From: an uncultured bacterium | GTDB lineage: Bacteria > Patescibacteriota > Kazan-3B-28 | Direction of reading: 5' to 3' | DNA: 52,780 nt | Assembly (NCBI GenBank): GCA_963695435.1 | Contig: OY968788.1 | Location: 1-52,780, forward strand | Shown: piece by piece, positions 1-34,307 of the stretch | Numbering within the stretch: position 1 is the stretch's first letter | How the letters are laid out: the number at the start of each line of letters is the position of its first letter | Notes under the pieces: generated by a model | Database searches by the model: none | The model's input: only the letters and a program-made list of their open reading frames with translations | What the model was told of the DNA's origin: nothing | Program-made: the position numbers and the translations under genes

Positions 1-1
1 C

Positions 2-523
2 GAGGTGCTCGGCGTCCAGCTCACCGTCACGCTCGGCGCGCTGCTCGCGGACGTCGCGCACACACGCCCGGTCCCGCTCGTCGGCCTCGCGAGTGACGCC
101 GCGCTCGTCGAGCGCCACGCGCTGTCGCCGACCTCCTACGAGGGGCCGACCGGGATCACCGGCGTCCTCTACACCGCCTTCCAGGACGCGGGCCTGCCGT
201 CGGCCTCGCTGTGGGCGAGCGTCCCGCACTACGTCGCCGCGGCGCCGAACCCGAAGGCGTCGCTGGCGCTCGTGCGCAAGCTCGAGTCCATCGTCGGTGT
301 GAGCGTCGACGCGAGCGACCTGGAGACCGGCGCCGCCGAGTACGAGCAGCGGGTGACCCAGGCGGTCTCCGGCGACGACGACGTGCGCCAGTTCGTCGAG
401 CGCCTCGAGCAGGCCGCGGACGCCGAGGCACCGTCGCCCGAGCAGCAGGACGTCCCGTCGGGCGACGTGCTCGCGCGCGAGTTCCAGCGGTTCCTCTCGC
501 AGCGCCCGCCGCACGAGGACTGA
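2..523 (+). CDS. PAC2 (proteasome assembly chaperone 2-like) family protein, C-terminal part; the 5' end lies outside the window
   Basis: The frame is open from the window edge to TGA at 521-523. The translation (GITGVLYTAFQDAGLPSASLWASVPHYVAAAPNPKASLALVRKLE) resembles actinobacterial PAC2-family proteins from memory. This frame shows strong GC3 bias. Confidence 0.55.
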   Translation, partial: EVLGVQLTVTLGALLADVAHTRPVPLVGLASDAALVERHALSPTSYEGPTGITGVLYTAFQDAGLPSASLWASVPHYVAAAPNPKASLALVRKLESIVGVSVDASDLETGAAEYEQRVTQAVSGDDDVRQFVERLEQAADAEAPSPEQQDVPSGDVLAREFQRFLSQRPPHED

Positions 524-2272
524 TGCTTCACACGACGTCAACCTCGCGCCAACACGGCGAACATAGGCTGAGGAACGTGCCAGGCCTCCCCGGACCGGCC
601 CGTTCGCTGGTCCGCGTCGTGCGCGCGGCCTTCAGCACGCGCGACCTGCGACGGCTGGAGTTCGCCTGGGCCTGCACATCGGTGGCGCACTGGTCGGGCG
701 TCATCACGCTCGCGGTGTACGGGTACGGCGAGGGCGGAGCGGCGGCCGTCGGCCTGATCGGGCTCGCGCGGATGCTCCCCCGGGACTGTTCTCGCCGTTC
801 GCGAGCCTGCTCGGGGATCGCCATTCCCGCCGCGACGTGCTCATCGTCTCCTCGGCGCTGCGCCTGACGACGGGCCTGCTGCTCGGCGCGGCCGTGCTCG
901 CGGGTCTGCCGCTGCCGTTCGTCATCGCCATCGCGTCGCTGAAGACGATCGTCGGCGTGGCCTACAAGCCGGCCCAGGCGGCGCTGCTGCCGCAGCTCGC
1001 GCAGGCGCCGCGGCAGATGGCGGCGGCGAATGCCGTCTGGACGGGCGTGGACAGTGCGGGCTTCATCGTCGGGTCGATCGCCGGCGGCATCCTGATCGCC
1101 TCGCTGCCCGCCTCGACGGCGCTCGCGGCCACGGCGCTGCCCTACGGGCTCGCGGCTCTGGTCCTGCTCGCGATCCGTCGCGACCCGACGCCCGAGCACC
1201 GGCGGGCGGTCGAGGACGTGACGGTCCGCGAGGAGGTGCTCGCGGGCTTTCGCACGATCGCCGCGGTGCCGCAGCTGCGAACGCTCGTCGGGACGCTCAG
1301 CGCCGCGATGCTCATCCAGGGCACGGTCGACGCGCTCATCGTCATCTTCGGCCTCCAGACCCTCGGGCTGGCGACGTCCGAGATCGGCGTGCTGACCGCG
1401 ATGTGGGGGGTCGGGGGCATGTTCGGCGGCGTCGCGGCGCTCGGCCTGCTCGGACGCGGTCGGCTGGCCCGGGGTCTGGGGTTCGGGCTCGTGATCATGG
1501 GCACACCCCTGCTGGTCCTCTCGCTCGTCGACACGCTCCCGGTGGCGGTCGTGGTCTTCGTCTTCGTCGGCGTCGGCTATGCACTGGTGGCGGTCGCGGG
1601 GCTGACCCTGCTCCAGCGCCTGGCCTCCGACGACGTCCTCTCGCGCGTGTTCGGCGTCGTCGAGAGCACGTACGTCATCTCCATGGGCATCGGCGCCGCG
1701 CTCGCGCCGCTGCTCGTGTCCCTGCTCGGCGTGCGCGGCGCGCTGCTGGCGGTCGGGGCGTTCCTGCCGGTGCTCGCGCTCCTGCGCTGGCGGACGCTGG
1801 CGCGCTTCGAGGCCGGTCGCCCGATCCCCGAGCGTCCGTTCGTCCTGCTGCGCGGGGTCCCGCTGTTCCGCCGCTGCCGGTGGCGTCGATCGAGAACCTC
1901 GCGCTGCGGATCCATCCCGTCGAGATCGAGGAGGCCGCGACGATCTTCCATCAGGGCGACCGGGGCGATCGGTTCTACGTCGTCGACAGCGGCGAGGTCG
2001 AGGTGCTCGTCGACGGCACGTCCCGCCGGGTCGAGCGCGCCGGCGAGTTCTTCGGGGAGATCGCGCTGCTGCACGAGGTGCCGCGGACGGCCACGATCCG
2101 CACGCTCGGGCCGGCGCGGCTGTACGCGCTCGAGAGCGCCGAGTTCATCGAGAGCGTGACCGGGCACCCGCGGAGCATCCGGTCGGCGGATGCCGTCATC
2201 ACCTACCGCCTGGAGAACTCCGGCGCGTCAGCGGGCGCTGACACGCCGGTCTCAGCCGTCGACGGCGGCTGA
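523..2272 (+). pseudogene. MFS-type transporter fused to a C-terminal cyclic-nucleotide-binding domain, broken by two -1 frame changes (pseudogene or consensus errors)
   Basis: Three consecutive frames each carry sensible protein. Frame 1 (523/577 to ~780) reads ...LRRLEFAWACTSVAHWSGVITLAVYGYGEGG...LARMLP. Frame 0 (~780 to ~1868) is a multi-TM MFS body, PGLFSPFASLLGDRHSRRDVLIVSSALRL...LLRGVPLF. Frame 2 (~1871-2272) reads PLPVASIENLALRIHPVEIEEAATIFHQGDRGDRFYVVDSGEVEV...FFGEIALL...RTATI, a cNMP-binding fold. The first shift sits in the C5 run at 777-781; one extra C would give MLPPGLFSPF. The second sits at about 1866-1871. Confidence 0.6.
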
Positions 2273-3412
2273 CGCCGGCCGGCCGCGGGCGCCCGGCCGC
2301 GCGGCGGTCGGCCGCGCGCGACCCGCGACGCGCCGGTGCGACCAGTCGATCGCCGGGCGCTCCACGAGCTTCCAGCTGAGCCACCCGGCCAGGACCGACA
2401 CCGCGAGCACCATCAGGAGGCGGGGCACGAACGGCTTCGGCAGGACGCCGGCGCTGCGCAGCACGAGGATCAGCGGCAGGTGCCAGAGGTACAGGCCGTA
2501 GGAGATGACGCCCGCCCCGGCCAGCGGCCTCCACGCCAATCCGTGCAGGACGGGACCGCGCCCCGCGGCGACCGCGCCGATCACGAGCGCGAAGCCCGCC
2601 GCGGCGGGCAGGTCGCGCAGCGGCCCGCGCCAGCCGTCCAGGTCGCAGGGCGTCTCCCCCCAGACGGCGTGACCGACGACGAGCGCGGCCCCCGCGAGCG
2701 CGGCGAGGGTCGTCGTGCGCGCGGTGAGGGTGGGCGCGCCGGAGCGCCGCCGCAGCTCGATCCACAGCGCCGCGAGCATCCCGCAGGCGAACACGCCCAT
2801 GAACGTCGGGAGCGCCTTCTGGACCACGTCGTTCCAGCCCTGCTCGTAGACGATGCGGTTCCAGCCCGTCGCGAGCGCGATGATCGCGACGAGCAGCGCG
2901 GCCTGGGCCCGGGGCCGCGCGCCGAGCTTCAGCGCGAGCAGCCCGATGAGCGGGAGGACGAGGTAGAACGCGACCTCGACGCAGAGCGTCCAGGCGACCG
3001 GGATCAGCTGCATGATCGTGTCCATCGAGTAGTTCTGCCCGAACACGAGGAACAGCGGCAGCTCGCGGGCCGACGGGGTGATGTTGTCGGGTCCGAAGAT
3101 CGCGTAGAGCGCGAGGACGCCGAAGATCGCGACGTCGTAGGCCGGGACGATGCGGGCCACGCGGCGGATCGCGTAGGTGCCGACGTCCGGGCGCGGGCCG
3201 CCGAGCGCCGCGCGCACGAACGTGCGGTAGAGGAGGTACCCCGAGAGGACGAAGAAGCAGACGAGCCCCAGGTGCAGCGCGAAGCCGATCTGATCCAGCA
3301 GCGCGTCGGAGCGCCCCGGCGGCCGGTCCCGGTAGAGCCAGACGTGGAACACCAGCACCGACAGCGCGGCGATGCCGCGGATCCCGTCGATGGCGGCGTT
3401 GCGCACCGGCAT
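2252..3412 (-). CDS. Acyltransferase family 3 (OafA/YrhL-like) integral membrane protein
   Basis: The 386-aa ORF starts MPVRNAAIDGIRGIAALSVLVFHVW, the typical acyltransferase_3 N-terminus, followed by about 10 hydrophobic segments. Its 3' end overlaps the convergent upstream gene by 21 nt (2252-2272). Confidence 0.8.
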   Translation of the reverse strand: MPVRNAAIDGIRGIAALSVLVFHVWLYRDRPPGRSDALLDQIGFALHLGLVCFFVLSGYLLYRTFVRAALGGPRPDVGTYAIRRVARIVPAYDVAIFGVLALYAIFGPDNITPSARELPLFLVFGQNYSMDTIMQLIPVAWTLCVEVAFYLVLPLIGLLALKLGARPRAQAALLVAIIALATGWNRIVYEQGWNDVVQKALPTFMGVFACGMLAALWIELRRRSGAPTLTARTTTLAALAGAALVVGHAVWGETPCDLDGWRGPLRDLPAAAGFALVIGAVAAGRGPVLHGLAWRPLAGAGVISYGLYLWHLPLILVLRSAGVLPKPFVPRLLMVLAVSVLAGWLSWKLVERPAIDWSHRRVAGRARPTAARPGARGRPASAAVDG

Positions 3413-3513
3413 GGTGGTGCGGACGGTAGCGGGATCCGTGGGGTGTCTGTAGGGGGCGTCTGAGATTGATCAGCGATCCGCGAGCGGATCCCTGTCCTGC
3501 CAGGGGGCCCTAC

Positions 3514-4140
3514 CTACCGCTCCGCCGCCGGGCACGCGATCCGGTAGTCGCAGATCGCGCAGGCGGCGTAGCTCGGCGTCGGCTCGAACCCCTGGCTGCC
3601 GATGCCGTCGGCGACCTCGAGCACCGTCTCGCCGATGCGGGCCGCGTCGACGTCGCCGCCCGGCAGCGGGACCTTCTCGTCGTCCAGGACGTAGAGGTAG
3701 GACTGCACCGGGGACTCGACCTCCCACGCCTCGCGCGCCGCGAGCGCGTAGAGGCTGAGCTGCACGTCGTCGCGCAGCTGCGCCTCGGTCCTCGGCCGTC
3801 CCGTCTTGTAGTCGATCAGCTCGTACCCGCCCTCGGGCAGGCGGTCCACCCGGTCCACCCGCCCGCGCAGCGTGTGCGGGCCCAGCCGGAAGGTGAAGGA
3901 CTTCTCGAACCACACCGGCTCGCCGTCCTCCGTCCGCCGCCGCTCCTCGTAGCGGTGCAGCGCGGTCTCGGCCTTCGCGCGCAGCTGGCGCTCCTCGTCG
4001 CCCGCCCCCAGCCCGCCGCGGCGCCAGGAGGCGTCGAGCAGCCCGAGCAGCTCGTCGACGGAGCCTCCGCCGGACTGGTGGTAGCGCTCGAGGACCTGGT
4101 GGACGACGATGCCGAAGCGCTGATTGAGGGCCTTGGGGTT
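3514..4140 (-). CDS. C-terminal PD-(D/E)XK (RecB/AddB/Cas4-like) nuclease domain fragment; the N-terminal part of the parent gene is absent
   Basis: This is the high-GC distal ~207 codons of ORF 3514..5082. Nuclease motifs appear in order: [33 protein letters not shown], and a terminal Cys cluster [10 protein letters not shown]. There is no start codon of its own, and it is fused in frame to recA. Confidence 0.7.
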
Positions 4141-4150
4141 GTCGATTAGA
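4125..4150. other. Compositional breakpoint / chimeric join between the high-GC block and the low-GC replicon
   Basis: Sequence to the left (…gccgaagcgctgattgagggccttggggtt) is GC-rich. Sequence to the right (gtcgattagatattgttttgcgg…) is AT-richer. Both flanking genes are truncated exactly here, yet the reading frame stays open. Confidence 0.8.
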
Positions 4151-5082
4151 TATTGTTTTGCGGCTTCGCGGCCTTGTCCAATTTTTTCGCCATTGTACTC
4201 GTACCATGCGCCACTTTTGTTCAGGAGCCCAAGCGGCACACCTAAGTCTACAATTTCACCCGCGTGAGAAATGCCTTGGTTGAACATGACATCAAATTCT
4301 GCTTGGCGGAAAGGCGAAGCTACTTTATTTTTTACGACCTTCACGCGAACATGGTTGCCGATAGGATTGTCGCCATCTTTCAGTGTTTCCACTCGGCGAA
4401 TGTCCATCCGAATCGAGGAATAAAATTTGAGCGCGTTGCCGCCGGTGGTGGTTTCCGGATTGCCAAACATAATCCCAATCTTCATCCGAATTTGGTTGAT
4501 GAAAATAATGGTTGTTTTGGAGCGACCGGTGACGGCAGTGATTTTGCGTAACGCCTGGCTCATCAATCGCGCTTGCAGACCCATATGCGAATCTCCCATA
4601 TCACCATCTATTTCAGCCTTGGGGGTAAGTGCGGCGACGGAGTCAATCACGATAATACCAACTGCGTTGGAACGAATGAGCGCTTCGACAATACCGAGTG
4701 CTTGTTCACCAGTGTCCGGTTGGGAAATGAGCAATTCTTTTATGTTCACCCCAATGCGCTTGGCGTATTCGGGGTCAAGAGCATGTTCAGCGTCAACGAA
4801 CGCCGCTACTTCACCTTTCTTTTGCGCTTGCGCAACAATATTCAAAGCTAGGGTAGTTTTGCCTGAAGATTCCGGCCCGAAAATTTCAATAACTCTGCCC
4901 TTGGGGACACCGCCTACACCCAATGCTATATCCAACCCCAAAGAGCCGGTGGGGGTTACTTCTACATCCAATAGTTTGGTATCACCCAAACGCATAATTG
5001 AACCTTCGCCAAAATCTTTATGAATTGCATCCAAGGTAGCATCAAGACTGTTAGCGGGGGAGACGACTGGGGTCTTAGCCAT
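4141..5082 (-). CDS. recA: Recombinase RecA (3'-truncated at the join; about 314 codons present)
   Basis: The ORF begins [34 protein letters not shown]. It has Walker [13 protein letters not shown] and the motifs [21 protein letters not shown] and [17 protein letters not shown]. The last recognisable RecA residues are ...[17 protein letters not shown]. Confidence 0.95.
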
Positions 5083-5104
5083 AGTGAGAGTCCTTTCTTA
5101 AAAA

Positions 5105-5596
5105 TTAGCGATAGTTAATAAATTGAAGAGGAATATCTAAATTGGAGTTTTTGAGTAAGTCCATAACGGCCTGAAGGGTATCAAGGCTGGGGTTGGTCAC
5201 ACGAATAGTTTCGCCCTGAATGGCGGTTTTGACTTTCGGATAAGTGTCGCGAACTAGTTTATTAATTTGCTTGGCTCGTTCTGACGAGACACCCGAAATC
5301 AGTGGGATAGTGGAACGGATTTGCCCTTGAGTGGCTGGTTCATTTTTGGGTTCGCCTAAGATTTTTAGGGTAAGCCCGCGGCGCAGCAACTTCGTATCCA
5401 GCACATCTCTGACCGCCTTTAGTTTATACTCGTCCGCGGTCGTAATCACCAGCTGGGTAGCTTCTTGTTTGATCTCTACCGGGACATCTTTGAAGTCATA
5501 TCGCACGGCAATTTCTTTTCGAGTTTGGTCGAGCGCGTTGACCAACTCCTGGCCATCAATTTCCGAAACAATATCAAAACTGTGGTCGCTTGCCAT
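5105..5596 (-). CDS. yajQ: YajQ family (UPF0234) nucleotide-binding protein
   Basis: The 163-aa protein starts SFDIVSEIDGQEL and contains RYDFK, IQGETIRVT and LQAVM. It is collinear with E. coli YajQ as recalled. Confidence 0.85.
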   Translation of the reverse strand: MASDHSFDIVSEIDGQELVNALDQTRKEIAVRYDFKDVPVEIKQEATQLVITTADEYKLKAVRDVLDTKLLRRGLTLKILGEPKNEPATQGQIRSTIPLISGVSSERAKQINKLVRDTYPKVKTAIQGETIRVTNPSLDTLQAVMDLLKNSNLDIPLQFINYR

Positions 5597-5598
5597 CT

Positions 5599-7818
5599 CT
5601 AGTAATCCTCGCCTTCAACAAATTCTTCGCCTGTTGTCTCGTCTAAATCTTTTCTGCCGGTGAAACTGGCGAGCTGTTCGCGTTTGATCAGAATGTCGCG
5701 TGCCTTGGCTCCATCACCCGGGCCAATCACTCCTTTTTCTTCTAAGATATCCAAAAGTCTGGCTGCGCGAGCATAACCAACTCGGAAACGGCGCTGCAAA
5801 TACGATGCCGACGCTTTGCCGGTCTTTACTACCAAATCTATCGCTTCGTTGGTCAGGGGGTCGGATTCACTATCATCGCCACCAAATGTACCGGGGCCTG
5901 ATTTGGTGTCCTGTAGAACTTCCGGTATGTATTGGGGAGCGTCGATTGATTTGAGAGCATCGGTAACCGATTTGATTTCTTTATCGCTAATAAAACAAGC
6001 CTGAATACGCTTTGGCTTGGCGGCATCTGAAGGCATAAACAGCATATCTCCGTTGCCCAACAATTTATCAGCGCCGACCGTGTCTAAAATAGTGCGAGAA
6101 TCAACGCCGGATGTAACAGCAAAAGCAATTCGAGAAGGGAAGTTCGCCTTGATGAGACCAGTGATAACATCCACAGACGGACGCTGGGTAGCGAGAATCA
6201 AATGAATGCCGACAGCGCGAGACATTTGAGCGAGGCGACATATGTAGGCTTCAACTTCGCGGGCAGATACCGCCATCAAGTCGGCCAACTCATCAATCAC
6301 TAGCACAATGTAGGGCAACTTATTTTCTTCGCCGACCTGTTTGTTGAAACTCATTATTTCTTTCACTTTGAGCTCGGACATCACCCGATAACGACGCTCC
6401 ATCTCCGCCACCAGCCACTTCATTGAGTTGATGGTTTTGTGTGGGTCAACAATGACAGGAGAAAGAAGATGAGGGACATCATTATAGTTGGTGAATTCAA
6501 CTCTCTTCGGGTCAACCAAAATCAACCGAAGGTCGGCAGGTGAATTTTGATATAGGAGACTTACCAGAATATCATTTAGAAAAACGCTTTTGCCAGCACC
6601 TGTGGCACCGGCGATTAGCAAATGAGGCATCCTCAACAAATCGGTTGCCATTGGTACGCCGGCAACATCACGACCGAGAGGCAGACGAAGCACGGATTTA
6701 ACATTCTGAAATCCTTCCGATTCCATTACTTCACGCAAACGAACCAACGCAGTCTTTTTGTTCGGGACTTCCACACCAACCAATGAACGACCGGGGATAG
6801 GGGCTTCAATACGAATTGGGTGGGCGGCTAGTGATAACGCTAAGTCATTAGAAAGATTAGAGATTCGAGACAGTTTGATACCGGCGGCAGGTTTCAGGGT
6901 GTATTGGGTAACAGTTGGCCCAACATTTACTTCATGCATTTCTACCGGAATCCCAAAGTCCTCCAGAGTCTCCCGAATAATTGAAACATTGTTGGTAATG
7001 TTCCCGCTATCAACCTTGGTTGTGATATCACTCAACAAGTCTAGTGACGGGGGAGTCCAGTCACCGCTCGGAATAAAGCGGGGGATGAAATCAGTGTCTC
7101 TGCCTTTGACCCCATTGATAACCGGCTTGAGTGGACCAGTGGCTGGTTCTTCGGAATCTTCGTCCTCTTCTTCTTTCCCTTTGCGACCCAACTTTCCTTT
7201 GGGTAGATTGTCGTTGATTTTAATATCTGGGATTGTCGGCAACGAGAAGCGGGTGCGCAAATAGATTTCGCGAAGAGGCAGCCCAAAGGCAAACAAAAGT
7301 GAAACCGCAAACATAACACCAATCAACAAGAATGATGCCCAAAAATCCATCACACTGATTAAGAACCGAGTGATGAAATAACCAAGGTACCCACCACCAT
7401 TACCGGAAGTCGCTAAATCCAGCCCGACTTCAGGACCGGTAAAAACATGGATCAGCGAAGATAGCGACACAACAAATAAAATCAGCCCGATAACATTAGC
7501 TGTTTTGAATTTGAAACGGGAAGGGAAGAACAACCCGATGCCTGCGATAGCAAGAAGAACTGGGAATACAAAACTAGTCCAACCGAACCCAATCCGAAGT
7601 CCTGCATAGAAAATCTGACCAAAACTTCCCGCTAACCCCAAAATGGCGAGTAGGGTAAAGACACCTAGACCTACCAGAACGATACCGAAAATCTCCCGAG
7701 TTACTTCGGGATCAAGTTCTAGATCAAAGTTCCAGTCCTTGAGGAACTTGCTAGTTTGGTAGGAACGATAGCGATATCGTCGGGCCCCAGTTTTTCTTCT
7801 CTTTCTACGACGCGCCAT
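5599..7818 (-). CDS. ftsK: DNA translocase FtsK/SpoIIIE
   Basis: N-terminal TM helices are followed by an acidic linker and a motor domain with Walker A GATGAGKSV and Walker B LVIDELADL. The C-terminus has a gamma-like winged helix (SYLQRRFRVGYARAARLLD). Confidence 0.9.
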   Translation of the reverse strand: MARRRKRRKTGARRYRYRSYQTSKFLKDWNFDLELDPEVTREIFGIVLVGLGVFTLLAILGLAGSFGQIFYAGLRIGFGWTSFVFPVLLAIAGIGLFFPSRFKFKTANVIGLILFVVSLSSLIHVFTGPEVGLDLATSGNGGGYLGYFITRFLISVMDFWASFLLIGVMFAVSLLFAFGLPLREIYLRTRFSLPTIPDIKINDNLPKGKLGRKGKEEEDEDSEEPATGPLKPVINGVKGRDTDFIPRFIPSGDWTPPSLDLLSDITTKVDSGNITNNVSIIRETLEDFGIPVEMHEVNVGPTVTQYTLKPAAGIKLSRISNLSNDLALSLAAHPIRIEAPIPGRSLVGVEVPNKKTALVRLREVMESEGFQNVKSVLRLPLGRDVAGVPMATDLLRMPHLLIAGATGAGKSVFLNDILVSLLYQNSPADLRLILVDPKRVEFTNYNDVPHLLSPVIVDPHKTINSMKWLVAEMERRYRVMSELKVKEIMSFNKQVGEENKLPYIVLVIDELADLMAVSAREVEAYICRLAQMSRAVGIHLILATQRPSVDVITGLIKANFPSRIAFAVTSGVDSRTILDTVGADKLLGNGDMLFMPSDAAKPKRIQACFISDKEIKSVTDALKSIDAPQYIPEVLQDTKSGPGTFGGDDSESDPLTNEAIDLVVKTGKASASYLQRRFRVGYARAARLLDILEEKGVIGPGDGAKARDILIKREQLASFTGRKDLDETTGEEFVEGEDY

Positions 7819-7837
7819 AGGTGATTTTTACTAGGTA

Positions 7838-7846
7838 ATTATACCA
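7838..7846 (-). promoter_or_regulatory. Extended -10 promoter element (TGgTATAAT) upstream of ftsK
   Basis: The reverse complement of attatacca reads TGGTATAAT. The TATAAT hexamer ends 19 nt upstream of the ftsK ATG (7818). The -35 element is weak. Confidence 0.45.
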
Positions 7847-7971
7847 TAGGAGGTGGGCATAAATAATTGGTGAGAAAATAAGGCTGGGAGCGAATAATTT
7901 GACCTTGACGCCTTGTTGTGATAGGCTGTTGGCACAAGGGGGAGCGTCCCTTGAATTTTAGGAGGTGGCTC

Positions 7972-8913
7972 ATGAGAGCCCTAATAATATTCTTTGTCGC
8001 CACCCTGGTGGCGATGATGTCGGTGGCTGCGGGAGCCACTAGCGGTGGTTGGTTTGTCAGCCAAGACAAACCCGATGTCACCGTCGTTTACGAAATCAGC
8101 GGTCATTTGACCGTTACTGACAATCTCGATGGAGATATCGAGACTGGCTCCTTCGTGAAAGCGGAGGGGGCATCAATCACGGGGATACTTGTTACCTCTA
8201 AGAAAAATCCTTTTGGGATGAAGTGCTTGCTGGGAGGCAAGCGCGAATTCTACATCAACGCCCAAGACAGCTGCCAATTGCCTAACGGCCAGGGGCAGCT
8301 AGTTATTCGGTGGGGTGAAGACGGGCCAACTGTTGTTCTTAGAACCGTCAAAAGGGATTTGGACGAGAGGGACTACTTTATTTACAGGGAGCAACCCAAG
8401 GAGCCAGTGGCTGTACCTACTACAGCACTGCCCACTCCTGCCCCTACGCGAGATGTTGGTATCCCTGACGGGGAATACCTTCGTCTTTGTTGGTGGGGCG
8501 GCTTTACCAAGGACGGGAACCCACGGGTGGACCCGAATCATGCGGTTGTCTGGTGGAGCGTTGAGTACCCGCCTATAAGTTTCTCTTGGTTGTTATATCA
8601 GTGGGAATTATGGGGCGAAGAACGCTCCCTATACCGCGCTGACGAACAACAGAAAACAACGGGTACCGATGAACCATCGGCGGTGATGGCTACCGTTGAA
8701 GAAGGAGTCCCTGTAATCCTGGCCGAGGAGACCCGGAGACTTAAGATCCCTGGGGCCGGAGAGGTGACACTTGGCTTCGTGGAAAAGGGAGTAAGTAAGA
8801 TTCAGGCAGGCGATTGGCCCCACATCGAGGTATCGATGCTTGAGGGGGGTCGCCCCCAGCAAGCCATTCTTCTACGCCGTGGTGGCGAATGGGAGTGGCT
8901 ACCACTAGAATAG
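7972..8913 (+). CDS. Secreted hypothetical protein (Trp-rich, no recognisable family)
   Basis: An internal ATG at 7972 is preceded by AGGAGG (7960-7965) and opens a signal-peptide-like MRALIIFFVATLVAMMSVAAGA. The gene lies on the opposite strand to all neighbours. It ends before a perfect bidirectional hairpin. Confidence 0.55.
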   Translation: MRALIIFFVATLVAMMSVAAGATSGGWFVSQDKPDVTVVYEISGHLTVTDNLDGDIETGSFVKAEGASITGILVTSKKNPFGMKCLLGGKREFYINAQDSCQLPNGQGQLVIRWGEDGPTVVLRTVKRDLDERDYFIYREQPKEPVAVPTTALPTPAPTRDVGIPDGEYLRLCWWGGFTKDGNPRVDPNHAVVWWSVEYPPISFSWLLYQWELWGEERSLYRADEQQKTTGTDEPSAVMATVEEGVPVILAEETRRLKIPGAGEVTLGFVEKGVSKIQAGDWPHIEVSMLEGGRPQQAILLRRGGEWEWLPLE

Positions 8914-8926
8914 TACTTTGACTAAA

Positions 8927-8954
8927 AGAGCCGGCACCTTCGGGTGCCGGCTCT
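8927..8954. terminator. Bidirectional intrinsic terminator hairpin between convergent genes
   Basis: A perfect 12-bp stem agagccggcacc / ggtgccggctct surrounds the loop ttcg. A/T-rich runs flank both sides. Confidence 0.75.
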
Positions 8955-8966
8955 CTTCGATTTAAA

Positions 8967-10742
8967 TTAGACTTCGATAACGACAGGGAGGACGAGGGGA
9001 CGGCGTTCTGTTTCGCGGAATAAGAACTCTCCAATATTTTCGCGAAGCTTCAGTTTGATATTATTCCAACCGTCAGAGGTTTTGGCGGGGTGTTGAGCAA
9101 AAATCTTTTTGACCTGCTGGCGAGTCTTATCAATGAGATCGCCTTTTTCACGCATATAGACGAACCCTCTAGAAATAATGTCGGGGCTGCCGATGAGTTT
9201 TCCTTTTTTATCAACCACAGTGATTAGAACAATCATCCCTTCGGTCGCCATTGCTTGGCGGTCTCTTAGAACTACTTCTTTCACATCACCAACACCCAGG
9301 CCATCAACCATAATCCCGCCTACGGGAACTTTTTTACCCTTATTCATTTTCCCGTTTTTGAATTCCAGCGTGTCACCGTCTTCAATAACTAAAATATTGG
9401 AGGTTGGGATGCCCATAGAAAGTGCCAACTCCCTGTGAGCAATCAACATATGATATTCACCGTGCACAGGAGTGAACCAGCGGGGGCGAGTGAGACGAAT
9501 CATCTCTTTCATTTCCTCTTGGTAGCAGTGACCCGTGACATGGATCTGCATTTTTTTGTCGAAGATAACATTAGCCCCTTCGCGATAGAGATTGTTGATG
9601 ACGGCGGTAATAGAACGCTCATTGCCAGGGATAGCAGAGGAAGATAAAACAACCGTATCGCCCGGTTTGATTTTGACTTGCTTGTGCTCACCAAATGCCA
9701 TCCGCTGAAGCGCGGAACCTTCTTGCCCCTGACTGCCGGTGCTCAAAATTACCAACTGACTATCGGGTATTTTTTTGATTGCATGGAGTGGCACTAATAA
9801 ATCTTTCGGGGTTTTGATGTAACCCAAGTCTGATGCCACTTTGAAATATTTGATCATGCTTCGGCCGGCAATCGCTACCTTTCTCTTATACTTGATGGCG
9901 GCGGCTACCACATGTTGCATACGGTCGATGCGGGAGGCAAAGGATGCCACGATTAGGCGCCCTCGGGTTTTGGCAAAAATTTGCATAAAGGCATCAACGA
10001 TAACTTGTTCGGAATCGGTTCGGCCGGGAGTGTGAGCATTAGTGCTTTCGCTCAAAAGCAATAGTAATCGTTCGCGGCCAAGGGCTTCGAGTTTGTGATA
10101 TTCAGCCTTGATGCCATCCGGCGGAGTGGGGTCAAATTTGAAGTCGCCCGTGTACATAATCTTTCCGTCCGGAGTATCAACGACAATACAGAATGTGTCG
10201 GGGATACTGTGATTGACCCGCACGAACGAGACGGTAAAAATGCCTGCGCGGATTTTGTCATCTGCACCGTAAGTAATAACACGAACATTCCCCGCATTGC
10301 CGGCTTCTTCCAAATTTACTTTGATGAGGGCGGCTGCCAAGCGGGGAGCGTAGACAGGCACACCGAGTTTTGGAGCAAGATGTTGGATAGCTCCGATGTG
10401 GTCTTCATGCCCGTGGGTAATAAAAATACCGCGAAGCTTTTTGATATTCTTTTCCAAATAGGTAGGATCGGGAATTACATAATCGATGCCGAGCATAGTT
10501 TCGTCGGGCATCATCATCCCGCAATCCAGTACGACAATATCGTTGCCGTATTCAATAGCGATCATATTTTTGCCCATATCACCAACTCCACCCAAAGGAA
10601 TTATCCGAAGCATTTTGCTAGGCTTGCCGGCAACTTCTTTTTGAAGAGGCTGGCTAGGGCGGGGCTTGGAGCGATTTGGTCGGTACCCGCGAGATGGGCG
10701 AGAGGTCTTGTTATTAGGCGTTGGGTGAAATGTCTTTCTCAT
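8967..10742 (-). CDS. rnj: Ribonuclease J (metallo-beta-lactamase / beta-CASP)
   Basis: The protein has the HGHEDHIG motif, the RNase J-like start LRIIPLGGVGDMGKNM, and a basic N-terminal extension. Its start overlaps the udg stop as ATGA. Confidence 0.9.
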   Translation of the reverse strand: MRKTFHPTPNNKTSRPSRGYRPNRSKPRPSQPLQKEVAGKPSKMLRIIPLGGVGDMGKNMIAIEYGNDIVVLDCGMMMPDETMLGIDYVIPDPTYLEKNIKKLRGIFITHGHEDHIGAIQHLAPKLGVPVYAPRLAAALIKVNLEEAGNAGNVRVITYGADDKIRAGIFTVSFVRVNHSIPDTFCIVVDTPDGKIMYTGDFKFDPTPPDGIKAEYHKLEALGRERLLLLLSESTNAHTPGRTDSEQVIVDAFMQIFAKTRGRLIVASFASRIDRMQHVVAAAIKYKRKVAIAGRSMIKYFKVASDLGYIKTPKDLLVPLHAIKKIPDSQLVILSTGSQGQEGSALQRMAFGEHKQVKIKPGDTVVLSSSAIPGNERSITAVINNLYREGANVIFDKKMQIHVTGHCYQEEMKEMIRLTRPRWFTPVHGEYHMLIAHRELALSMGIPTSNILVIEDGDTLEFKNGKMNKGKKVPVGGIMVDGLGVGDVKEVVLRDRQAMATEGMIVLITVVDKKGKLIGSPDIISRGFVYMREKGDLIDKTRQQVKKIFAQHPAKTSDGWNNIKLKLRENIGEFLFRETERRPLVLPVVIEV

Positions 10743-11362
10743 AGTTGTTCATTAAAAATAGTTGATTGTGTAACCGGATCCAAAGCGGAGGATTTATCCG
10801 GGAGTTTTTCGATCTTGTCTAAAATAAGGGGGATTTTTTGGATGTCTGAAATAAAGACTGTCCGAAGTTTCGGATCATACAACGCGGCGGCGGGGTGGTA
10901 CACGGGGAAGAAAACTCGGTCGCCTTGACGCTTGGCAGTACCCCGAACTTGGGAAATTTGCAGCCCCGGCAAAAACCAGTGCAGAGCATGACGGCCGAGC
11001 AAAACAATCAGTTTGGGCTGAATCAGTTTCAATTCGCGTTCCAAAAATGGTTTGTGTTCTTCCACCTCTTCGGGGAGGGGGTCACGATTGTCCGGCGGAC
11101 GACATTTCACCACATTGGTAATATAGACATCCTCGCGGGTCAACCCAATCTGCGCCAACCCTTCGGCAAGAAGCTTGCCGGCAGCTCCAACAAACGGCTG
11201 ACCAAGTTCGTCTTCTTTTCGCCCCGGACCTTCACCGATAAAAACTACCGGGCTTTCAATATTGCCTTCGCCCGGTACTGCTTGAATACATCCATCGCGA
11301 AGTGAGCAATGGTGCCGTTTGATGTCATCAACTATTTTTTGATACTCCGCTAGTTTATCCAT
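10739..11362 (-). CDS. udg: Uracil-DNA glycosylase, family 4
   Basis: The motifs GEGPGRKEDELGQPFVGAAGKLL and N-terminal Cys residues are typical of family-4 UDG, and HPAA occurs near the C-terminus. Confidence 0.85.
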   Translation of the reverse strand: MDKLAEYQKIVDDIKRHHCSLRDGCIQAVPGEGNIESPVVFIGEGPGRKEDELGQPFVGAAGKLLAEGLAQIGLTREDVYITNVVKCRPPDNRDPLPEEVEEHKPFLERELKLIQPKLIVLLGRHALHWFLPGLQISQVRGTAKRQGDRVFFPVYHPAAALYDPKLRTVFISDIQKIPLILDKIEKLPDKSSALDPVTQSTIFNEQL

Positions 11363-11609
11363 TGCTAATGAGCCACCAAATAATTAGCCCGACTACTATT
11401 ATTATACTCATTAGCCACCAACCTCCCGCTCGGCGGGGGGCAGGAGTCTCGGCGACTGCTCGTTCCCGTTCGATTTGGGGCGGCAAGAAAATTTTGCTTC
11501 GGCGCTCTTCCTGCAATTTAGAATGTTTGAGCCAAGTAGCACATTTGGAACAAAAAGTCGCACCAGCTGGATTGGGCTCGCCGCAATTATGACAGCGTAT
11601 GGTATTCAT
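11355..11609 (-). CDS. Small zinc-ribbon protein with a C-terminal transmembrane helix
   Basis: CHNCGEPNPAGATFCSKC forms a CxxC...CxxC ribbon. The hydrophobic tail is GGWWLMSIIIVVGLIIWWLI. There is an 8-nt overlap with the udg start. Confidence 0.6.
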   Translation of the reverse strand: MNTIRCHNCGEPNPAGATFCSKCATWLKHSKLQEERRSKIFLPPQIERERAVAETPAPRRAGGWWLMSIIIVVGLIIWWLISNG

Positions 11610-11614
11610 GAGAG

Positions 11615-13765
11615 TTAGCGGCGAGGGCGCCGATCGTCACGACGAGGAGGACGAGGTGGGCGAGGGTCGATTCGGCCACCATTTAGTACGGCTTTGTGAG
11701 AAAGATTGATGCGACCGAGATTGTCGATTTCGGTTACAATCACTTCCAAGGGGTCGCCGACTTTTACTACATCCTCAACTTGATTGACTCGTTCGTTGCT
11801 AAGTTCGGAAATGTGAACCAGCCCTTCTTTGCCAGGGAGTACTTCCACAAAAGCGCCGAAGTCCATCAGGCGGGTTACTTTACCTGTGAACTTTTCTCCC
11901 ACCTCAACTTCGCGCATCATATTGCGGACAGTATCAGCGGCTTGTTCGCCCATTTTGGCATCAGTCGAGGTAATGTAAACCATCCCGTCTTCTTCAATAC
12001 TAATGTTGGTAACTTGTTTGCCGCCGGCTTTATCAATAATGTCGTTGATGACGCGACCGCCGGGCCCGATAACTTCACCAATTCTGTCTTGGGGAATTTT
12101 GACTGTTAGCACTCGTGGAGCATATTGCGATAATTCTTTGCGAGGCTCGGCAATAATTTCCGCCATTTTATCCAACAAGAATAGTCTGCCGATTTTGGCT
12201 TGAGCCAATGCGTCTTTCATAATTGCGACTGTGATGCCGGCAACTTTAATATCCATCTGCAAAGCCGTAACACCATCGCGACTACCAGCCACTTTGAAGT
12301 CCATATCGCCGTTGAAATCTTCAATGCCCGCGATATCGGTAAGAATCTTGTAGTTGGCTCCGTCTGTAATAAGCCCCATCGCAACACCAGCAATTGGTTT
12401 GGTAATTGGCACACCCGCATCCATCAACGAAAGTGTACTGCCACAAACAGAGGCCATTGAGCTACTGCCATTGCTTGCTAAAATTTCTGATACCACGCGA
12501 ATGGTGTACGGGAAGTCTTCGCGAGCGGGGATTACTGGCAACAGCGCTCTTTCGGCTAACGCGCCGTGACCAATTTCACGCCGACCAGCTTGGCGAAGAG
12601 GTTTTACTTCACCAGTAGCATAGGGTGGAAAGTTGTAGTGGTGCATGTAGCGCTTAGTGGTTTCGAATTCCATCGTGTCCAACATCTGCTCATCATCTAA
12701 AGAGCCTAGTGTTGTAGTGGTGAGTGCTTGAGTTTCGCCGCGAGTAAACAAAGCGGAGCCGTGTGGGCGAGGGAGCAACCCGACTTCAATCATAAGCGGA
12801 CGAATTTCATCCAGCTTGCGGCCATCGGGGCGACGACCTTCGGTCAAAATATTTCTGCGAACTTCTTCGCTCAATGCTTTGTTGAAAATATCCGACACGA
12901 CTAGCTCGGGGTTTGTTTCGCTGACAAACTCTTCCCAAATGTCTTGGCGAAGTTTGGCTAAGCTAGCGTTGCGAACTGTTTTTTCTGGATGATAAATTGC
13001 TTCCTGTAGCCGAGGTTTAACTTTGCCCACGATTTGTTCTTTGAGCTCAAGAGGGGTTTCGGTGAAGGCGACTTCCATTGGCTGAACTCCGAGAGCTTGT
13101 GCCATTTCAGCCTGCAATTCGAGAGTCGGCTGAAGAGATTTGTGCCCAAACTCAATCGCCTGCAAAATGATGTCTTCCGACACTCCGCTGGCACCGGCTT
13201 CCACCATCATGATGCCGTCTTTAGTACCCGCGATAACAATGTCTAATTCGCTTTTTCCGCGTTGTTCATAGGTGGGGTTGATAACAAATTCGCCGTCAAT
13301 CTGACCGACTCTGATACCCGCAACTGGTCCCTTGAATGGAATACCGGTTTGCATCAAGGCACAGGAAGCGGCAGTGATTCCCAAAATGTCCGGATCATTC
13401 ATTACATCGGCAGATAGTACCGTAACAACCACCTGCACATCATTGTAAAAACCCTTTGGGAAAAGTGGGCGCAGAGGACGATCAATAAGCCGAGCCGAAA
13501 GAACGGCGTCTTCACTTGGACGACCTTCTCGTTTGACAAATCTGCTCCCGGAAATTTTTCCGGCGGCATAAAACTTCTCTTCAAAATCAATGAGAAGCGG
13601 GAAGAAATCAATCCCTTCTCTGGGAGTAGGGGAAACTACCGCGGTAGCTAACACAACGGTATCGCCCAAACGCAAAGTAACCGAACCGCTGGCGAGCTGT
13701 GCCAGCTTGCCGGTTTCGAGAATTAACTTGGATTCCCCAAGTTGGGTAGTAAATTGTTGAGACAT
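11615..13765 (-). CDS. pnp: Polyribonucleotide nucleotidyltransferase (PNPase)
   Basis: The 716-aa protein has two RNase PH domains, a KH domain and an S1 domain (GKVTRLMDFGAFVEV). It lies immediately downstream of rpsO, the conserved arrangement. Confidence 0.95.
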   Translation of the reverse strand: MSQQFTTQLGESKLILETGKLAQLASGSVTLRLGDTVVLATAVVSPTPREGIDFFPLLIDFEEKFYAAGKISGSRFVKREGRPSEDAVLSARLIDRPLRPLFPKGFYNDVQVVVTVLSADVMNDPDILGITAASCALMQTGIPFKGPVAGIRVGQIDGEFVINPTYEQRGKSELDIVIAGTKDGIMMVEAGASGVSEDIILQAIEFGHKSLQPTLELQAEMAQALGVQPMEVAFTETPLELKEQIVGKVKPRLQEAIYHPEKTVRNASLAKLRQDIWEEFVSETNPELVVSDIFNKALSEEVRRNILTEGRRPDGRKLDEIRPLMIEVGLLPRPHGSALFTRGETQALTTTTLGSLDDEQMLDTMEFETTKRYMHHYNFPPYATGEVKPLRQAGRREIGHGALAERALLPVIPAREDFPYTIRVVSEILASNGSSSMASVCGSTLSLMDAGVPITKPIAGVAMGLITDGANYKILTDIAGIEDFNGDMDFKVAGSRDGVTALQMDIKVAGITVAIMKDALAQAKIGRLFLLDKMAEIIAEPRKELSQYAPRVLTVKIPQDRIGEVIGPGGRVINDIIDKAGGKQVTNISIEEDGMVYITSTDAKMGEQAADTVRNMMREVEVGEKFTGKVTRLMDFGAFVEVLPGKEGLVHISELSNERVNQVEDVVKVGDPLEVIVTEIDNLGRINLSHKAVLNGGRIDPRPPRPPRRDDRRPRR

Positions 13766-26009: not shown

Positions 26010-27392
26010 ATGCTAACGGACCAAGAAAAGCTGTGGCAAACCATTTTGGGTGAGATTGAAGTAGGGATGAGCCCTGCTAATTTTCAAACTTGGTTCAAAA
26101 GTACCGCGCTGGAAAGCGTGGATTTGGATAAGGGTGTGGCCGTAATTCGCGTACCAAATGATTTTACAAAGAGTTGGCTTCAGAAAAAATACCAGAAAGA
26201 GATTCATCGCTGTTTGACCAAACATGTAGGGAAGATGGTGGTGGTGCAATATGTTATTGGCATTCACAAACCAGAAGCTCGTCCTGAAAAAGCTACTCTA
26301 CCGATGTTTGAGCTCCAGCCAATTTCTACCAAATCAGCAAAGATTGAAGGCAACAAAGAGGTAAAGGAGGGGCTCAACCCACGATTTACTTTCGAGAGTT
26401 TCATTGTGGGAGAAAATAGCAAACTCTGTTATGCGGCGGCTGAAGCGGTCGCGAAAAAGCCAGGGGTCAATTACAACCCATTGTTTATTTACGGTGGGGT
26501 GGGGCTAGGGAAAACTCATCTGTTACAAGCTATCGGAAACGAAACTATCCAACTCAACCCCAAAGCGAAAGTGGTTTATGTTACCTCCGAAAGGTTTACC
26601 AACGAGATGGTGGATGCTATCCGCGGACAAAAGATGAAGGAATTCAAGGATAAGTACCGCAAGGTAGACTGTCTCCTAATTGACGACATCCAGTTTATTG
26701 CGAACAAGGAGCAAACCCAAGAAGAGTTTTTCCACACCTTCAACGCTCTTCACACCGCCGGAAAACAAATTGTGCTGACTTCCGACCGACCACCAAAAGC
26801 TATCCCGGCATTAGAGGAAAGGCTGCGCTCCCGGTTTGAGTGGGGGATGATCGCAGATATCGCAATTCCTTCTTATGAAACACGGCTGGCAATCTTACAA
26901 TCAAAGCTTGCTGGTCACGGCAAAGAATTATCCCAAGACATTTTGGAATACCTGGCAAAAGCCATCACCAATAATGTTCGGGAGCTGGAGGGAGCGCTTA
27001 CTCGTATCCTTGCGTATGCCGAGATAAACAACTCCACCCCCACGCTTGATGATGTGAAGGGTCTGATGGGTGGGATTCTAACGGCACCAGGGAAAAAGAT
27101 AGTTCGACCATCGGAAATTATCCGTGCCGTGGTTGCCCATTTCAATGTCAAAAAAGAAGATCTGACCGGTCGCCAGCGTACTCGGGACATTGTTATCCCG
27201 CGCCAGATCTTGGTTTATCTTCTTAGAGAAGAGGTGGATCTCCCCTATAAACAGATTGGGGCGGAGCTTGGGGGGAGAGACCATACAACAATCATGCATG
27301 ATTACAACAAAGTGCGGGATTTGATCCTGAAAAACGACCTGATTCATCAAGAAATCACCCAAATCAAAAATAAACTTTACGCTGTGGATTAG
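26010..27392 (+). CDS. dnaA: Chromosomal replication initiator DnaA
   Basis: It has the AAA+ Walker A GGVGLGKTHLLQAIG, Walker B LLIDDIQF, and a C-terminal DNA-binding domain (GGRDHTTIMH). Confidence 0.95.
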   Translation: MLTDQEKLWQTILGEIEVGMSPANFQTWFKSTALESVDLDKGVAVIRVPNDFTKSWLQKKYQKEIHRCLTKHVGKMVVVQYVIGIHKPEARPEKATLPMFELQPISTKSAKIEGNKEVKEGLNPRFTFESFIVGENSKLCYAAAEAVAKKPGVNYNPLFIYGGVGLGKTHLLQAIGNETIQLNPKAKVVYVTSERFTNEMVDAIRGQKMKEFKDKYRKVDCLLIDDIQFIANKEQTQEEFFHTFNALHTAGKQIVLTSDRPPKAIPALEERLRSRFEWGMIADIAIPSYETRLAILQSKLAGHGKELSQDILEYLAKAITNNVRELEGALTRILAYAEINNSTPTLDDVKGLMGGILTAPGKKIVRPSEIIRAVVAHFNVKKEDLTGRQRTRDIVIPRQILVYLLREEVDLPYKQIGAELGGRDHTTIMHDYNKVRDLILKNDLIHQEITQIKNKLYAVD

Positions 27393-27551
27393 TGGTGGAG
27401 TTATCTGGAGATATTGGAGTTGTCCACTATTTGTCCACCGTCCATCAACATTTTTAGCAATTTACCTCTTTGGGGAAGCTAGCCCCAGACTATAAAATTG
27501 AATTACTGCACTATATTCACCGCTCTATAACTACTGTTAATTTCTAATCTT
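27383..27551. promoter_or_regulatory. Candidate oriC segment: cluster of DnaA-box-like 9-mers followed by an AT-rich tract
   Basis: The box-like 9-mers are tgtggatta (27383-27391, 8/9 as complement), ttatctgga (27401-27409), ttgtccact (27420-27428) and ttgtccacc (27431-27439). About 110 nt of AT-rich sequence then runs up to the dnaN ATG. Confidence 0.55.
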
Positions 27552-28679
27552 ATGAATGAAAGTATTTCTATAAAGGGGGGTGTGGATATCCAAATATCTT
27601 TGGTATTGGATAAATTCAAAACCGCACTAAGTGGGGTGGAAAGAGTAGTTAGTTCAAGAAGTACTTTACCAATCTTGAATAATATATTGATTCGAGCAGA
27701 TAAGAGCGGGGTGGAGGTGGTAGCAACTGATTTGGAGATTGGAATAAAATTTTTCTTGGGCGGTAAGGTGGAACAAGAAGGGGTGATTACGGTACCAGGC
27801 AAGACCCTAATCAATCTAGTAAACAATCTTCACGGCGACACGATTACTCTTACAAGCAAGAGCAATGTTTTGGAAGTGGTGTGTGGAGAAACCAAAGCAA
27901 GTATCAACGGAATGCCAGCAGACGATTATCCTGTTATTCCACAAGTAGAGGGGGGGAAGCAGGTAAAACTAAAGACAGACTTGTTGGCTGGGTTACTTTC
28001 CGCGGTGGAATTTGCTGTTTCGCGAGACGAATCAAGACCAGTACTCACAGGTGTTTCTTTGGTGTCCAAAGAAGGAAAACTAACTGCGGCGGCAACGGAC
28101 AGTTATCGGTTGGGTGAAATAATCGCTGATGTTAATTTGGGGGAAGAGTTTGGGGTGGTAGTCCCAAGTAGAACTTTGCAAGAAGTGCGGAGGATAATGG
28201 GCGAGAGCGAAGAAATAGAGTTGAAGGTGGATGAAAACCAAGTAATGTTTGTTCTACCAAGCGCTAGTATTGTTTCGCGGATCATTGAGGGGGAGTATCC
28301 GCCGTACAAACAAATTATTCCTGCCAACCACACTTTGTCAGCCGAGTTTGATATTCAGGAAATGGCTGATGCTCTAAAGACTGCCGTCATATTTTCATTA
28401 GAAGGTTCCAATAGTGTCAAAATGAATATCAAGGCGGGTGGCGAAATTGAAGTGAGCTCGGAATCGTCTCAACTAGGAAACTTTGTGGCGAAAATTCCAG
28501 CCAAGATTGAGGGTGAGCCAACGGAAATAACTTTCAATGCTCGGTATGTGCTGGACGGGTTGAATAGTTTCGACACCATTAAATGTTCAATGGAGCTGGG
28601 CGGGAAAACATCACCAGGCGTATTTAGGCCTGTGGGAGCGGAAAATCGGCTCTACATTGTGATGCCGCTTAGAAGTTAA
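27552..28679 (+). CDS. dnaN: DNA polymerase III beta sliding clamp
   Basis: The 375-aa protein has three-domain length and the motifs STLPILNNILIRA, ATDSYRL and IIEGEYPPYKQIIP. The exact start codon is uncertain. Confidence 0.9.
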   Translation: MNESISIKGGVDIQISLVLDKFKTALSGVERVVSSRSTLPILNNILIRADKSGVEVVATDLEIGIKFFLGGKVEQEGVITVPGKTLINLVNNLHGDTITLTSKSNVLEVVCGETKASINGMPADDYPVIPQVEGGKQVKLKTDLLAGLLSAVEFAVSRDESRPVLTGVSLVSKEGKLTAAATDSYRLGEIIADVNLGEEFGVVVPSRTLQEVRRIMGESEEIELKVDENQVMFVLPSASIVSRIIEGEYPPYKQIIPANHTLSAEFDIQEMADALKTAVIFSLEGSNSVKMNIKAGGEIEVSSESSQLGNFVAKIPAKIEGEPTEITFNARYVLDGLNSFDTIKCSMELGGKTSPGVFRPVGAENRLYIVMPLRS

Positions 28680-28684
28680 CTTTA

Positions 28685-28768
28685 TTTGTCATCCTCGAGC
28701 CCCGACAAGTCGGGGCGAAGGATCTAAAGAATTATTCATAGATTCTTCACTTTGTTCAGAATGACAAA
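28685..28768. repeat. Compound inverted-repeat element filling the dnaN-recF spacer
   Basis: The left arm is tttgtcatcctcgagc[cccgacaagtcgggg]cgaaggatct (28685-28725). The right arm is agattcttcactttgttcagaatgacaaa (28740-28768). The termini tttgtcat/atgacaaa are perfect complements, and gaaggatct/agattcttc match 8/9. A nested GC hairpin lies at 28699-28716. Confidence 0.7.
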
Positions 28769-28777
28769 ACAACGACA

Positions 28778-29899: not shown

Positions 29900-30005
29900 G
29901 CAACCCCAACTAATATTGCCGGATAGATTATCAGGGTTTGGTTGGCTCATGCTTCTTTTGTGCTGTGCCCAAATTGGGGGTGCTCTTCCAAAATCTTCTA
30001 CGGGG

Positions 30006-30034
30006 TTGACAAAGTGGCTCTGGAAGCGTATAAA
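30006..30034 (+). promoter_or_regulatory. Near-consensus sigma70 promoter upstream of the hotdog-fold ORF
   Basis: TTGACA (30006-30011), a 17-nt spacer, then TATAAA (30029-30034). The ATG is at 30064. Confidence 0.6.
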
Positions 30035-30063
30035 TAGGATATCTTAAATATCGGGGTGTTTCG

Positions 30064-30507
30064 ATGTCGGCAAATGCTGCAGAGGCGGTGCCGGTGACGA
30101 ACCCGGCGAATGTACCTGAAATAATAGTTGGCAAGGTCTACGAACTGGAAATCAAGCCGATTTCCCAGGGGGAAATTGACGCCGCCAGTAGGTTGTTTCG
30201 CGATAATAACCCCGTCCACCCGAAAGGAGTGGTTCAGGAAGCGCTGCTTCAAGGGGTCATCGCTGGAGCGATTTACGGGTGGATCGATGGCTCTTCGCTT
30301 CGGGCTAGACATATTGTAAAACAGGAGACCCACGGGGTTTACCCGTCCAAAAACCGCACAGTCTTTCGCAACACGGCGGTGCAGCTGAAGGCGAAAGTGG
30401 TAGAACTAGAGCCCGGTCAGGTCAAGATAGAATTCGAGGTCTGTCGCCCGGCTGACGGTCTGGTACTCTACTGCGGATGGGTGAGAGGATCGGCTGCTAC
30501 GGTCTGA
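30064..30507 (+). CDS. Small hotdog-fold (MaoC dehydratase-like) protein, tentative
   Basis: The 147-aa protein has FRDNNPVHP, which resembles the D-x-N-P-x-H hydratase motif of MaoC-like proteins. The size fits a single hotdog domain. The gene looks somewhat GC-richer than its neighbours by eye. Confidence 0.4.
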   Translation: MSANAAEAVPVTNPANVPEIIVGKVYELEIKPISQGEIDAASRLFRDNNPVHPKGVVQEALLQGVIAGAIYGWIDGSSLRARHIVKQETHGVYPSKNRTVFRNTAVQLKAKVVELEPGQVKIEFEVCRPADGLVLYCGWVRGSAATV

Positions 30508-30519
30508 ACTACGCCAACT

Positions 30520-30556
30520 GAAGCGCTTCCTGCCCGAAAGGGTCGGAGGCGCTTTC
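30520..30556. terminator. Hairpin between convergent genes (candidate bidirectional terminator)
   Basis: gaagcgcttcctgccc, loop gaaa, then gggtcggaggcgctttc. The stem is about 15 bp including wobbles and one mismatch. Confidence 0.5.
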
Positions 30557-30560
30557 TCGT

Positions 30561-31427: not shown

Positions 31428-31489
31428 AAGGGCAATTAAAAATTAAGAATGAAAAATAAAAAATGGAAGACAGGGCAATTCAACAATAG

Positions 31490-34296: not shown

Positions 34297-34307
34297 ATGT
34301 CTATTAT

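Follow-up and report, generated by a model that had tools for sequence, protein, structure and literature searches.

We analysed the first 52,780 nucleotides (hereafter, the window) of contig OY968788.1, the single 560,194-base contig of a genome from an uncultured Patescibacteriota bacterium (Kazan-3B-28), and focused on an open reading frame (ORF) near its start in which a RecA protein appears to be fused to a nuclease. The ORF (3514..5082, minus strand) was confirmed to encode 522 amino acids (aa) and to be open across both parts. Pfam assigned RecA to residues 12-272 (profile positions 2-262 of 262, E = 4e-135), RecA_C to residues 275-320 (positions 1-46 of 57) and PDDEXK_1 to residues 315-518 (positions 28-247 of 247, E = 4e-33). 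The initial annotation of this stretch had read about 314 codons of RecA running into a nuclease in one frame; the order of the two parts stands, and the RecA part is 317 codons long instead. The contig contains no N, and the genome record, part of a one-per-species genome set, lists one contig with 96.67% completeness and 0% contamination. In a collection of 5.8 billion protein clusters the 522-aa protein is a singleton, known from this one 560,194-base contig. The apparent fusion is, with a probability that we put at roughly 93%, an artefact of sequencing or assembly of whatever kind, and a protein with the RecA-nuclease architecture is not expected in the cell.

Nucleotide composition changes abruptly within the ORF. 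The GC content of 200-nt windows drops from 0.755 at 3901-4100 to 0.500 at 4101-4300, and overall it is 0.734 in 1-4140 versus 0.455 in the remainder; among the 2-kb windows of the 560-kb contig, the first two are the only ones with GC above 0.58. Within the ORF, GC at third codon positions (GC3), calculated per 20 codons, stays at 0.25-0.65 as far as codon 320 and then rises to 0.95-1.0. Composition alone places the change point at 4138 (support interval 4093-4146), in agreement with the switch that the initial annotation had described at 4125-4150; GC, GC3 and tetranucleotides all step there. The tetranucleotide comparison of 1-4140 with the genome, which that annotation had also proposed, found the left part strongly deviant, its distance lying 26.8 standard deviations above that of 134 equal-sized chunks (z = 26.8).

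To the right of the step, positions 4131..5082 (minus strand) hold codons 1-317 of a recA gene, recognised by Pfam (RecA and RecA_C) and by same-genus homologues and lacking the last 16 codons and the stop. We compared it with 40 relatives, from the same genus to the same phylum (genomes of 0.4-1.2 Mb), and RecA was present in all of them. The full-length matches extended from query residue 1 to about residue 320, with fragmentary matches only in a few genomes, and the corresponding open frames measured 332-347 aa in members of the order, with lengths of up to 397 aa in the phylum as a whole. The same-genus and same-family proteins (open frames of 335-347 aa) share 94-79% aa identity with the window RecA. 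Those of the same genus end in ..DNPKVAKELExAIRxLHGVK followed by the stop, whereas the window RecA is intact to ..DNPK and 16 residues short, so that the loss of the normal C-terminal tail, already suspected, is borne out. The window sequence (residues 1-317) resembles bacterial RecA (Pfam PF00154 and PF21096) in its complete core and its 79-94% identity to same-family and same-genus proteins, whereas RecA_C is matched over only 46 of the 57 profile positions and the last 16 residues and the stop are replaced by foreign sequence. Among the matches listed, the closest named RecA proteins are from a 'Patescibacteria group bacterium' and a 'candidate division Kazan bacterium', and the contig from 4131 onward is assigned on this homology to a Kazan-like Patescibacteria genome.

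The other part of the ORF (3514..4130, minus strand) comprises the last ~204 codons and the stop of a UvrD-helicase/PD-(D/E)XK nuclease gene. The 202-aa nuclease tail retrieved proteins of Solirubrobacteraceae/Solirubrobacterales metagenome-assembled genomes (MAGs) with up to 92-95% aa identity. Two public MAGs named Solirubrobacteraceae/Actinomycetes, L012 and L014, were aligned to the locus. The intact gene in L012 encodes 1056 aa, with UvrD-helicase at 21-293, UvrD_C at 303-659 and PDDEXK_1 at 824-1052, that is, a UvrD-family helicase with a C-terminal PD-(D/E)XK domain (AddA/AdnB/RecB-like; labelled 'ATP-dependent helicase' or 'PcrA' in the source records). Solirubrobacteraceae 'ATP-dependent helicase' is also the name of matches to the region around the junction, among the matches listed. 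The C-terminus of the L012 protein and residues 319-522 of the window ORF share 89% aa identity. The window differs from this family in having the last ~204 residues only, with no helicase and without the ~28 first residues of the nuclease domain: UvrD-helicase and UvrD_C are matched in L012 only, and the PDDEXK_1 profile is matched over positions 2-247 in L012 versus 28-247 in the window. The two nuclease sequences are identical from LNQRFG onward, and the ..YRTCPLKYKFARVFRIPNEPT that precedes LNQRFG in L012 is absent from the window. The missing part includes the Cys of ..RTCPLKY.. in the intact homologue, which we take to be one ligand of the Fe-S cluster in AddB/Cas4-type nucleases. The initial annotation was therefore right that the nuclease lacks its N-terminal part, the helicase domains of the 1056-aa homologue being absent, and mistaken in calling the nuclease domain motif-complete, as the profile match begins at position 28.

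The similarity to Solirubrobacteraceae extends from the nuclease tail to the contig start and spans four genes. The first is a PAC2-family gene that the contig start truncates, leaving its 3' part (2..523, plus strand; Pfam PAC2 profile 97-214 of 215); this part corresponds to residues 124-296 of a 296-aa ORF in L014 with 97.7% aa identity. It is followed by a gene for an MFS transporter fused to a cNMP-binding domain (526..2272, plus strand; Pfam MFS_1 and cNMP_binding), which is broken by two 1-base deletions (after 776 and after 1868), and by an acyltransferase-3 family gene (2252..3412, minus strand; Pfam Acyl_transf_3, E = 1.6e-32) whose product shares 85% aa identity with a 389-aa ORF of L014. 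At the DNA level, 1-4130 is collinear with L012 (89.5% identity over the nuclease tail and 82.8% over 2919 nt that include the acyltransferase and MFS-cNMP genes) and with L014 (93%, 86% and 93% over three blocks). The Solirubrobacteraceae alignments all end at window positions 4125-4130 although their loci go on for 7 kb, with ~850 further upstream codons of the nuclease gene. In the 40 relatives of the main genome, window 1-4128 had no match, and no match to the nuclease tail was found within the genus, family or order; a few same-phylum genomes match the tail weakly (25-38% identity), and most of these matches are at other loci, where they belong to separate ORFs of ~1000 aa. Searching the two halves of the ORF separately, as had been suggested at the outset, led from the RecA half to Kazan/Patescibacteria and from the nuclease half to Solirubrobacteraceae. 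By composition and by collinearity with L012 and L014, the segment at the contig start (1..4130, GC 0.73) is assigned to a Solirubrobacteraceae bacterium (Actinomycetota), a high-GC actinobacterium of soil or sludge that is unrelated to the main genome. The earlier advice to regard the sequence left of about 4140 as belonging to another replicon was sound, the exact coordinate being 4130.

The join itself (4130..4131) was placed by homology together with one public contig, and recA homology reaches to about 4131-4133. It is blunt, with no unassigned bases, evident microhomology, Ns or adapter-like insert, and on the minus strand the letters ..GACAACCCCAAGG are followed directly by CCCTCAATCAGCGC.. 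across it. The ORF is open here only because both pieces happen to share strand and reading frame, a 1-in-6 chance. The boundary had been described as free of integrase, tRNA and repeats, and our scans agree: no tRNA was detected in 1-12000, repeats were only short chance ones with none at 4130, and no integrase was present among the Pfam matches of the ORFs scanned.

A second foreign tail was found at the other end of the contig. Same-genus relatives have, within ~0.5-1 kb after recA, a convergent gene of ~316 aa with an N-terminal Ig-like domain, and by our reading of the motif ..HGCVRWG.. this gene probably carries an L,D-transpeptidase domain. Its N-terminal half is located in the contig at 558288-558763, ~1.4 kb from the end, and homology to the relatives stops at 558763. 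Beyond this point (558764-560194, minus strand, outside the window) lies a Bacteroidales-like xylulokinase gene covering residues 14-490 of ~492, as indicated by tblastn, Pfam and PDB searches. FGGY_N was detected by Pfam in two frames of this segment, and the best PDB match is xylulokinase 5vm1 (E = 1.7e-31); Pfam and PDB searches with the smaller pieces were not significant (E = 0.29-0.59 or no match). The longest open piece (260 aa) is 92% aa identical to 492-aa proteins, the named relatives being Bacteroidales/Bacteroidota, and the tail is absent from the 40 relatives save for one weak match (E = 8e-5). As recA and the transpeptidase-like gene are neighbours in the relatives, the contig ends border a single small gap that was left open. 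The native sequence missing from it amounts to ~1 kb, comprising the 3' end of recA, the spacer and the 3' half of the transpeptidase-like gene.

Both foreign tails contain broken reading frames. When P0121 was aligned to the xylulokinase tail by tblastn, residues 14-490 were recovered as five collinear pieces in frames -2, -1, -3, -1 and -2, giving four frame switches in 1.43 kb. In the left tail, the intact 646-aa MFS-cNMP ORF of L012 maps in three frames (526-780, 777-1868 and 1859-2266), and the ORFs that carry the MFS_1 and cNMP_binding Pfam matches overlap in different frames. The control was an alignment of 89 ORFs from a same-genus genome to the main genome, in which one frame switch appeared over 90.9 kb. 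Compared with this control, the tails have an excess of switches (Poisson P = 1e-3 for at least two in 4.13 kb, and P = 2.5e-9 for at least four in 1.43 kb). The sole switch of the control is at ~502245-503059 (outside the window), where a 280-aa ORF of genome G001 aligns in two different frames, owing either to a true frameshift or to an error left in the consensus.

Public sequencing runs were profiled with words sampled from window positions 2140-6140. No run held at least half of the words, the best share being 0.25, and the four best runs (X1-X4), each from a different study, carry the labels activated sludge, sediment and sludge metagenome. Contigs of all four cover 1-4130 at near identity. 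One contig of X1 (record 8, 356 letters) matches 3826-4130 with 0 differences and continues with 51 letters unlike the window, while another public contig stops one letter beyond 4130; among the contig pieces listed from X1-X4, none bridges 4130/4131. The four runs cover 4501-9000 next to not at all, which is not taken as evidence that the Patescibacterium was absent, and their high depth at 4201-4500 is due to short fragments of the conserved recA gene. All covering contigs of X1, X2 and X3 have an additional C after 776, and X1, X2 and part of X3 have an additional G after 1868; together these insertions restore the MFS-cNMP frame. As the frame changes coincide with these insertions, the window copy has private 1-base deletions, of which that at 776 is in a C5 run.

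Two further differences in the left segment were observed. All four runs differ from the window at 3450-3474, within the spacer that separates the acyltransferase start from the nuclease stop, with an additional G after 3450, an additional C after 3459 and substitutions at 3452, 3456 and 3474, which may represent differences between strains or additional consensus errors. Being intergenic and beside substitutions, the indels at 3450 and 3459 were not counted as errors. The helicase-nuclease orthologue of L014 (4349-7651) aligns with the window in two frames, which change near window 3976-4026. L012 and L013 keep one frame over that stretch, so the frameshift or consensus error is likely to be in L014 and not in the window.

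No second RecA-nuclease fusion was found. None of the 40 relatives has one, and in the search with the junction region (residues 270-420) the window's own protein alone spans the join among the best 120 of 8000 candidates; the other matches among the 120 cover at most 75% of the query and are PDDEXK proteins with or without UvrD_C. PF12705 is present in none of the 119 other RecA matches listed, again from the best 120 of 8000 scored candidates, all of which are 304-363 aa long. Likewise, none of 79 metagenome recA loci is extended, the distance from Walker A to the stop being 162-306 aa versus 450 in the window ORF. The 30-mer across the junction has no exact match in metagenome_contigs, a weak test given that the closest recA there is only 88% aa identical; no contig of the same strain that would show the native 3' end of recA turned up in that scan.

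Each side of the join has natural homologues that continue past it, no fusion is found elsewhere and a second foreign tail exists, in support of the artefactual chimera that the initial annotation had proposed. The contig is best read as a nearly complete but unclosed circular chromosome of a Kazan-like Patescibacteria member, to which 4130 bases of Solirubrobacteraceae DNA were joined at the start, inside recA, and 1431 bases of Bacteroidales-like DNA at the end, inside the L,D-transpeptidase-like gene, both pieces presumably deriving from other organisms in the same sample. Chimeric long reads are the most likely cause of the joins, as we infer. Two unrelated fragments would have been ligated, or read as one molecule, passed read cleaning and become the outermost reads of the contig. 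Such a chimeric tail would be covered by one or a few reads, and its indel errors would then persist; long chimeric reads could also push out true reads and break the circle. In the myloasm preprint (doi 10.1101/2025.09.05.674543), unsplit chimeric long reads are described as stitching distinct genomes, removing contained reads, and breaking assemblies or yielding chimeric ones. The present contig resembles the cases described there in that distinct genomes are stitched, the circle is broken at the same place and the tails are at the contig ends, and differs in that both ends are affected, one join keeps an ORF open and the read-level cause is inferred.

Several points weigh against this explanation. 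The case is built on assembled sequence. The join is clean, with neither adapter remnant nor Ns, and a clean join is not the usual leftover of an unsplit back-to-back nanopore read. Private frame-breaking indels are 40 to 250 times as dense in the tails as in the main genome, but the control reference is more distant (same genus, matches with at least 50% aa identity) than the tail references and the densities were not measured identically. Only the deletion at 776, of the two in the left tail, is in a homopolymer, so the error signature is suggestive rather than diagnostic, and the tail frameshifts could in principle be real pseudogenisation.

The artefact might also have arisen after assembly, if three binned contigs (4.1 kb of Solirubrobacteraceae, 554.6 kb of Patescibacteria and 1.4 kb of Bacteroidales-like DNA) had been concatenated or scaffolded without spacer Ns. 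This route, whose share is contained in the probability given above, seems rather unlikely to us. The genome is held as a single contig without N, each of the four ends, outer and inner, interrupts a gene at an arbitrary point in the manner of contig ends, and short low-coverage contigs would likewise hold more indel errors. On the other hand, contigs of 4.1 kb with 73% GC and of 1.4 kb would be poor candidates for binning with a 45%-GC genome, and joining without a spacer is unusual; scaffolding of the simple kind with N spacers is ruled out by the clean, N-free join. Nothing in the sequence tells the chimeric-read and concatenation routes apart. A repeat-induced misjoin in a de Bruijn graph was also considered and is unlikely, as the two parents have no shared stretch at the join.

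A real and recent insertion is very improbable. Under it, the Patescibacterium would have taken up foreign DNA, and illegitimate recombination would have placed a Solirubrobacteraceae-Bacteroidales mosaic between recA and the transpeptidase-like gene, with ~1 kb deleted and a true fusion created; the assembler would then have broken the contig inside the insert. The ORF that is open across the join, the absence of Ns and adapter there, and the position of both foreign tails at the flanks of one native locus fit this scenario. It would, however, need a two-phylum mosaic with every border gene truncated and no mobility genes, and no integrase, tRNA or boundary repeat was found. Contigs from four public runs are nearly identical to the left tail, and one of these contigs departs from the window past 4130; the private frame-breaking indels are concentrated in the tails, and neither the 40 relatives nor the wider protein and locus searches returned a fusion, with the junction 30-mer also unmatched in metagenome_contigs. 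A genomic island or horizontally transferred segment would share the sharp compositional contrast of the segment with the host genome; in the window, however, integrase, tRNA and flanking repeats are lacking, both border genes are truncated, the segment is at the contig end so that one border only is available, and it carries private indel errors. An island was rejected, with no tRNA, no boundary repeats and no integrase among the Pfam matches of the scanned ORFs. If true, the insertion would show inter-phylum DNA capture next to recA in its raw state, before any amelioration, with RecA given a foreign nuclease tail, in an ultra-small cell that presumably relies on imported nucleic acids.

An evolved, functional RecA-nuclease fusion with a new domain architecture is scarcely credible: both Pfam domains are well above threshold in one ORF, but GC3 passes from ~0.5 to ~1.0 at one codon, a contrast that amelioration would have removed from an evolved fusion, and the protein is a singleton. 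The nuclease half is 89-93% identical at the nucleotide level to Solirubrobacteraceae genes and lacks the first 27 profile positions and the whole helicase. This reading, which the initial annotation had also discounted, was rejected on the searches of relatives, protein collection (best 120 of 8000 candidates) and metagenome loci, in which no homologous fusion with the same junction appeared.

Biologically, the locus is ordinary, being neither a new protein architecture nor an island, and the finding is useful as a warning of a contaminated reference genome and a spurious fusion protein. The 5.6 kb from two other phyla at the genome ends were evidently missed by marker-gene quality scores, and the fake 522-aa 'RecA + PD-(D/E)XK' protein could pass in the collection for a novel domain fusion or for an inter-phylum transfer into Patescibacteria. 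The genome should be trimmed to about 4131-558763 and the window recA annotated as 3'-incomplete, and the PAC2, MFS-cNMP, acyltransferase and nuclease-tail genes of 1-4130 should not be attributed to the Patescibacterium.

Some compositional features were also observed within the Patescibacteria part of the contig. The lowest-GC 2-kb window of the genome is at 146001-148000 (outside the window), with 0.35 versus a mean of 0.457. GC is raised at 8001-9000 (0.54 versus ~0.47 in the adjoining windows), and a 331-aa ORF is present at 7918-8913 (plus strand). Finally, GC skew is persistently positive at ~27000-47000 of the window, reaching 0.35 per kb window, which would be consistent with one replication arm or with strongly strand-biased genes.

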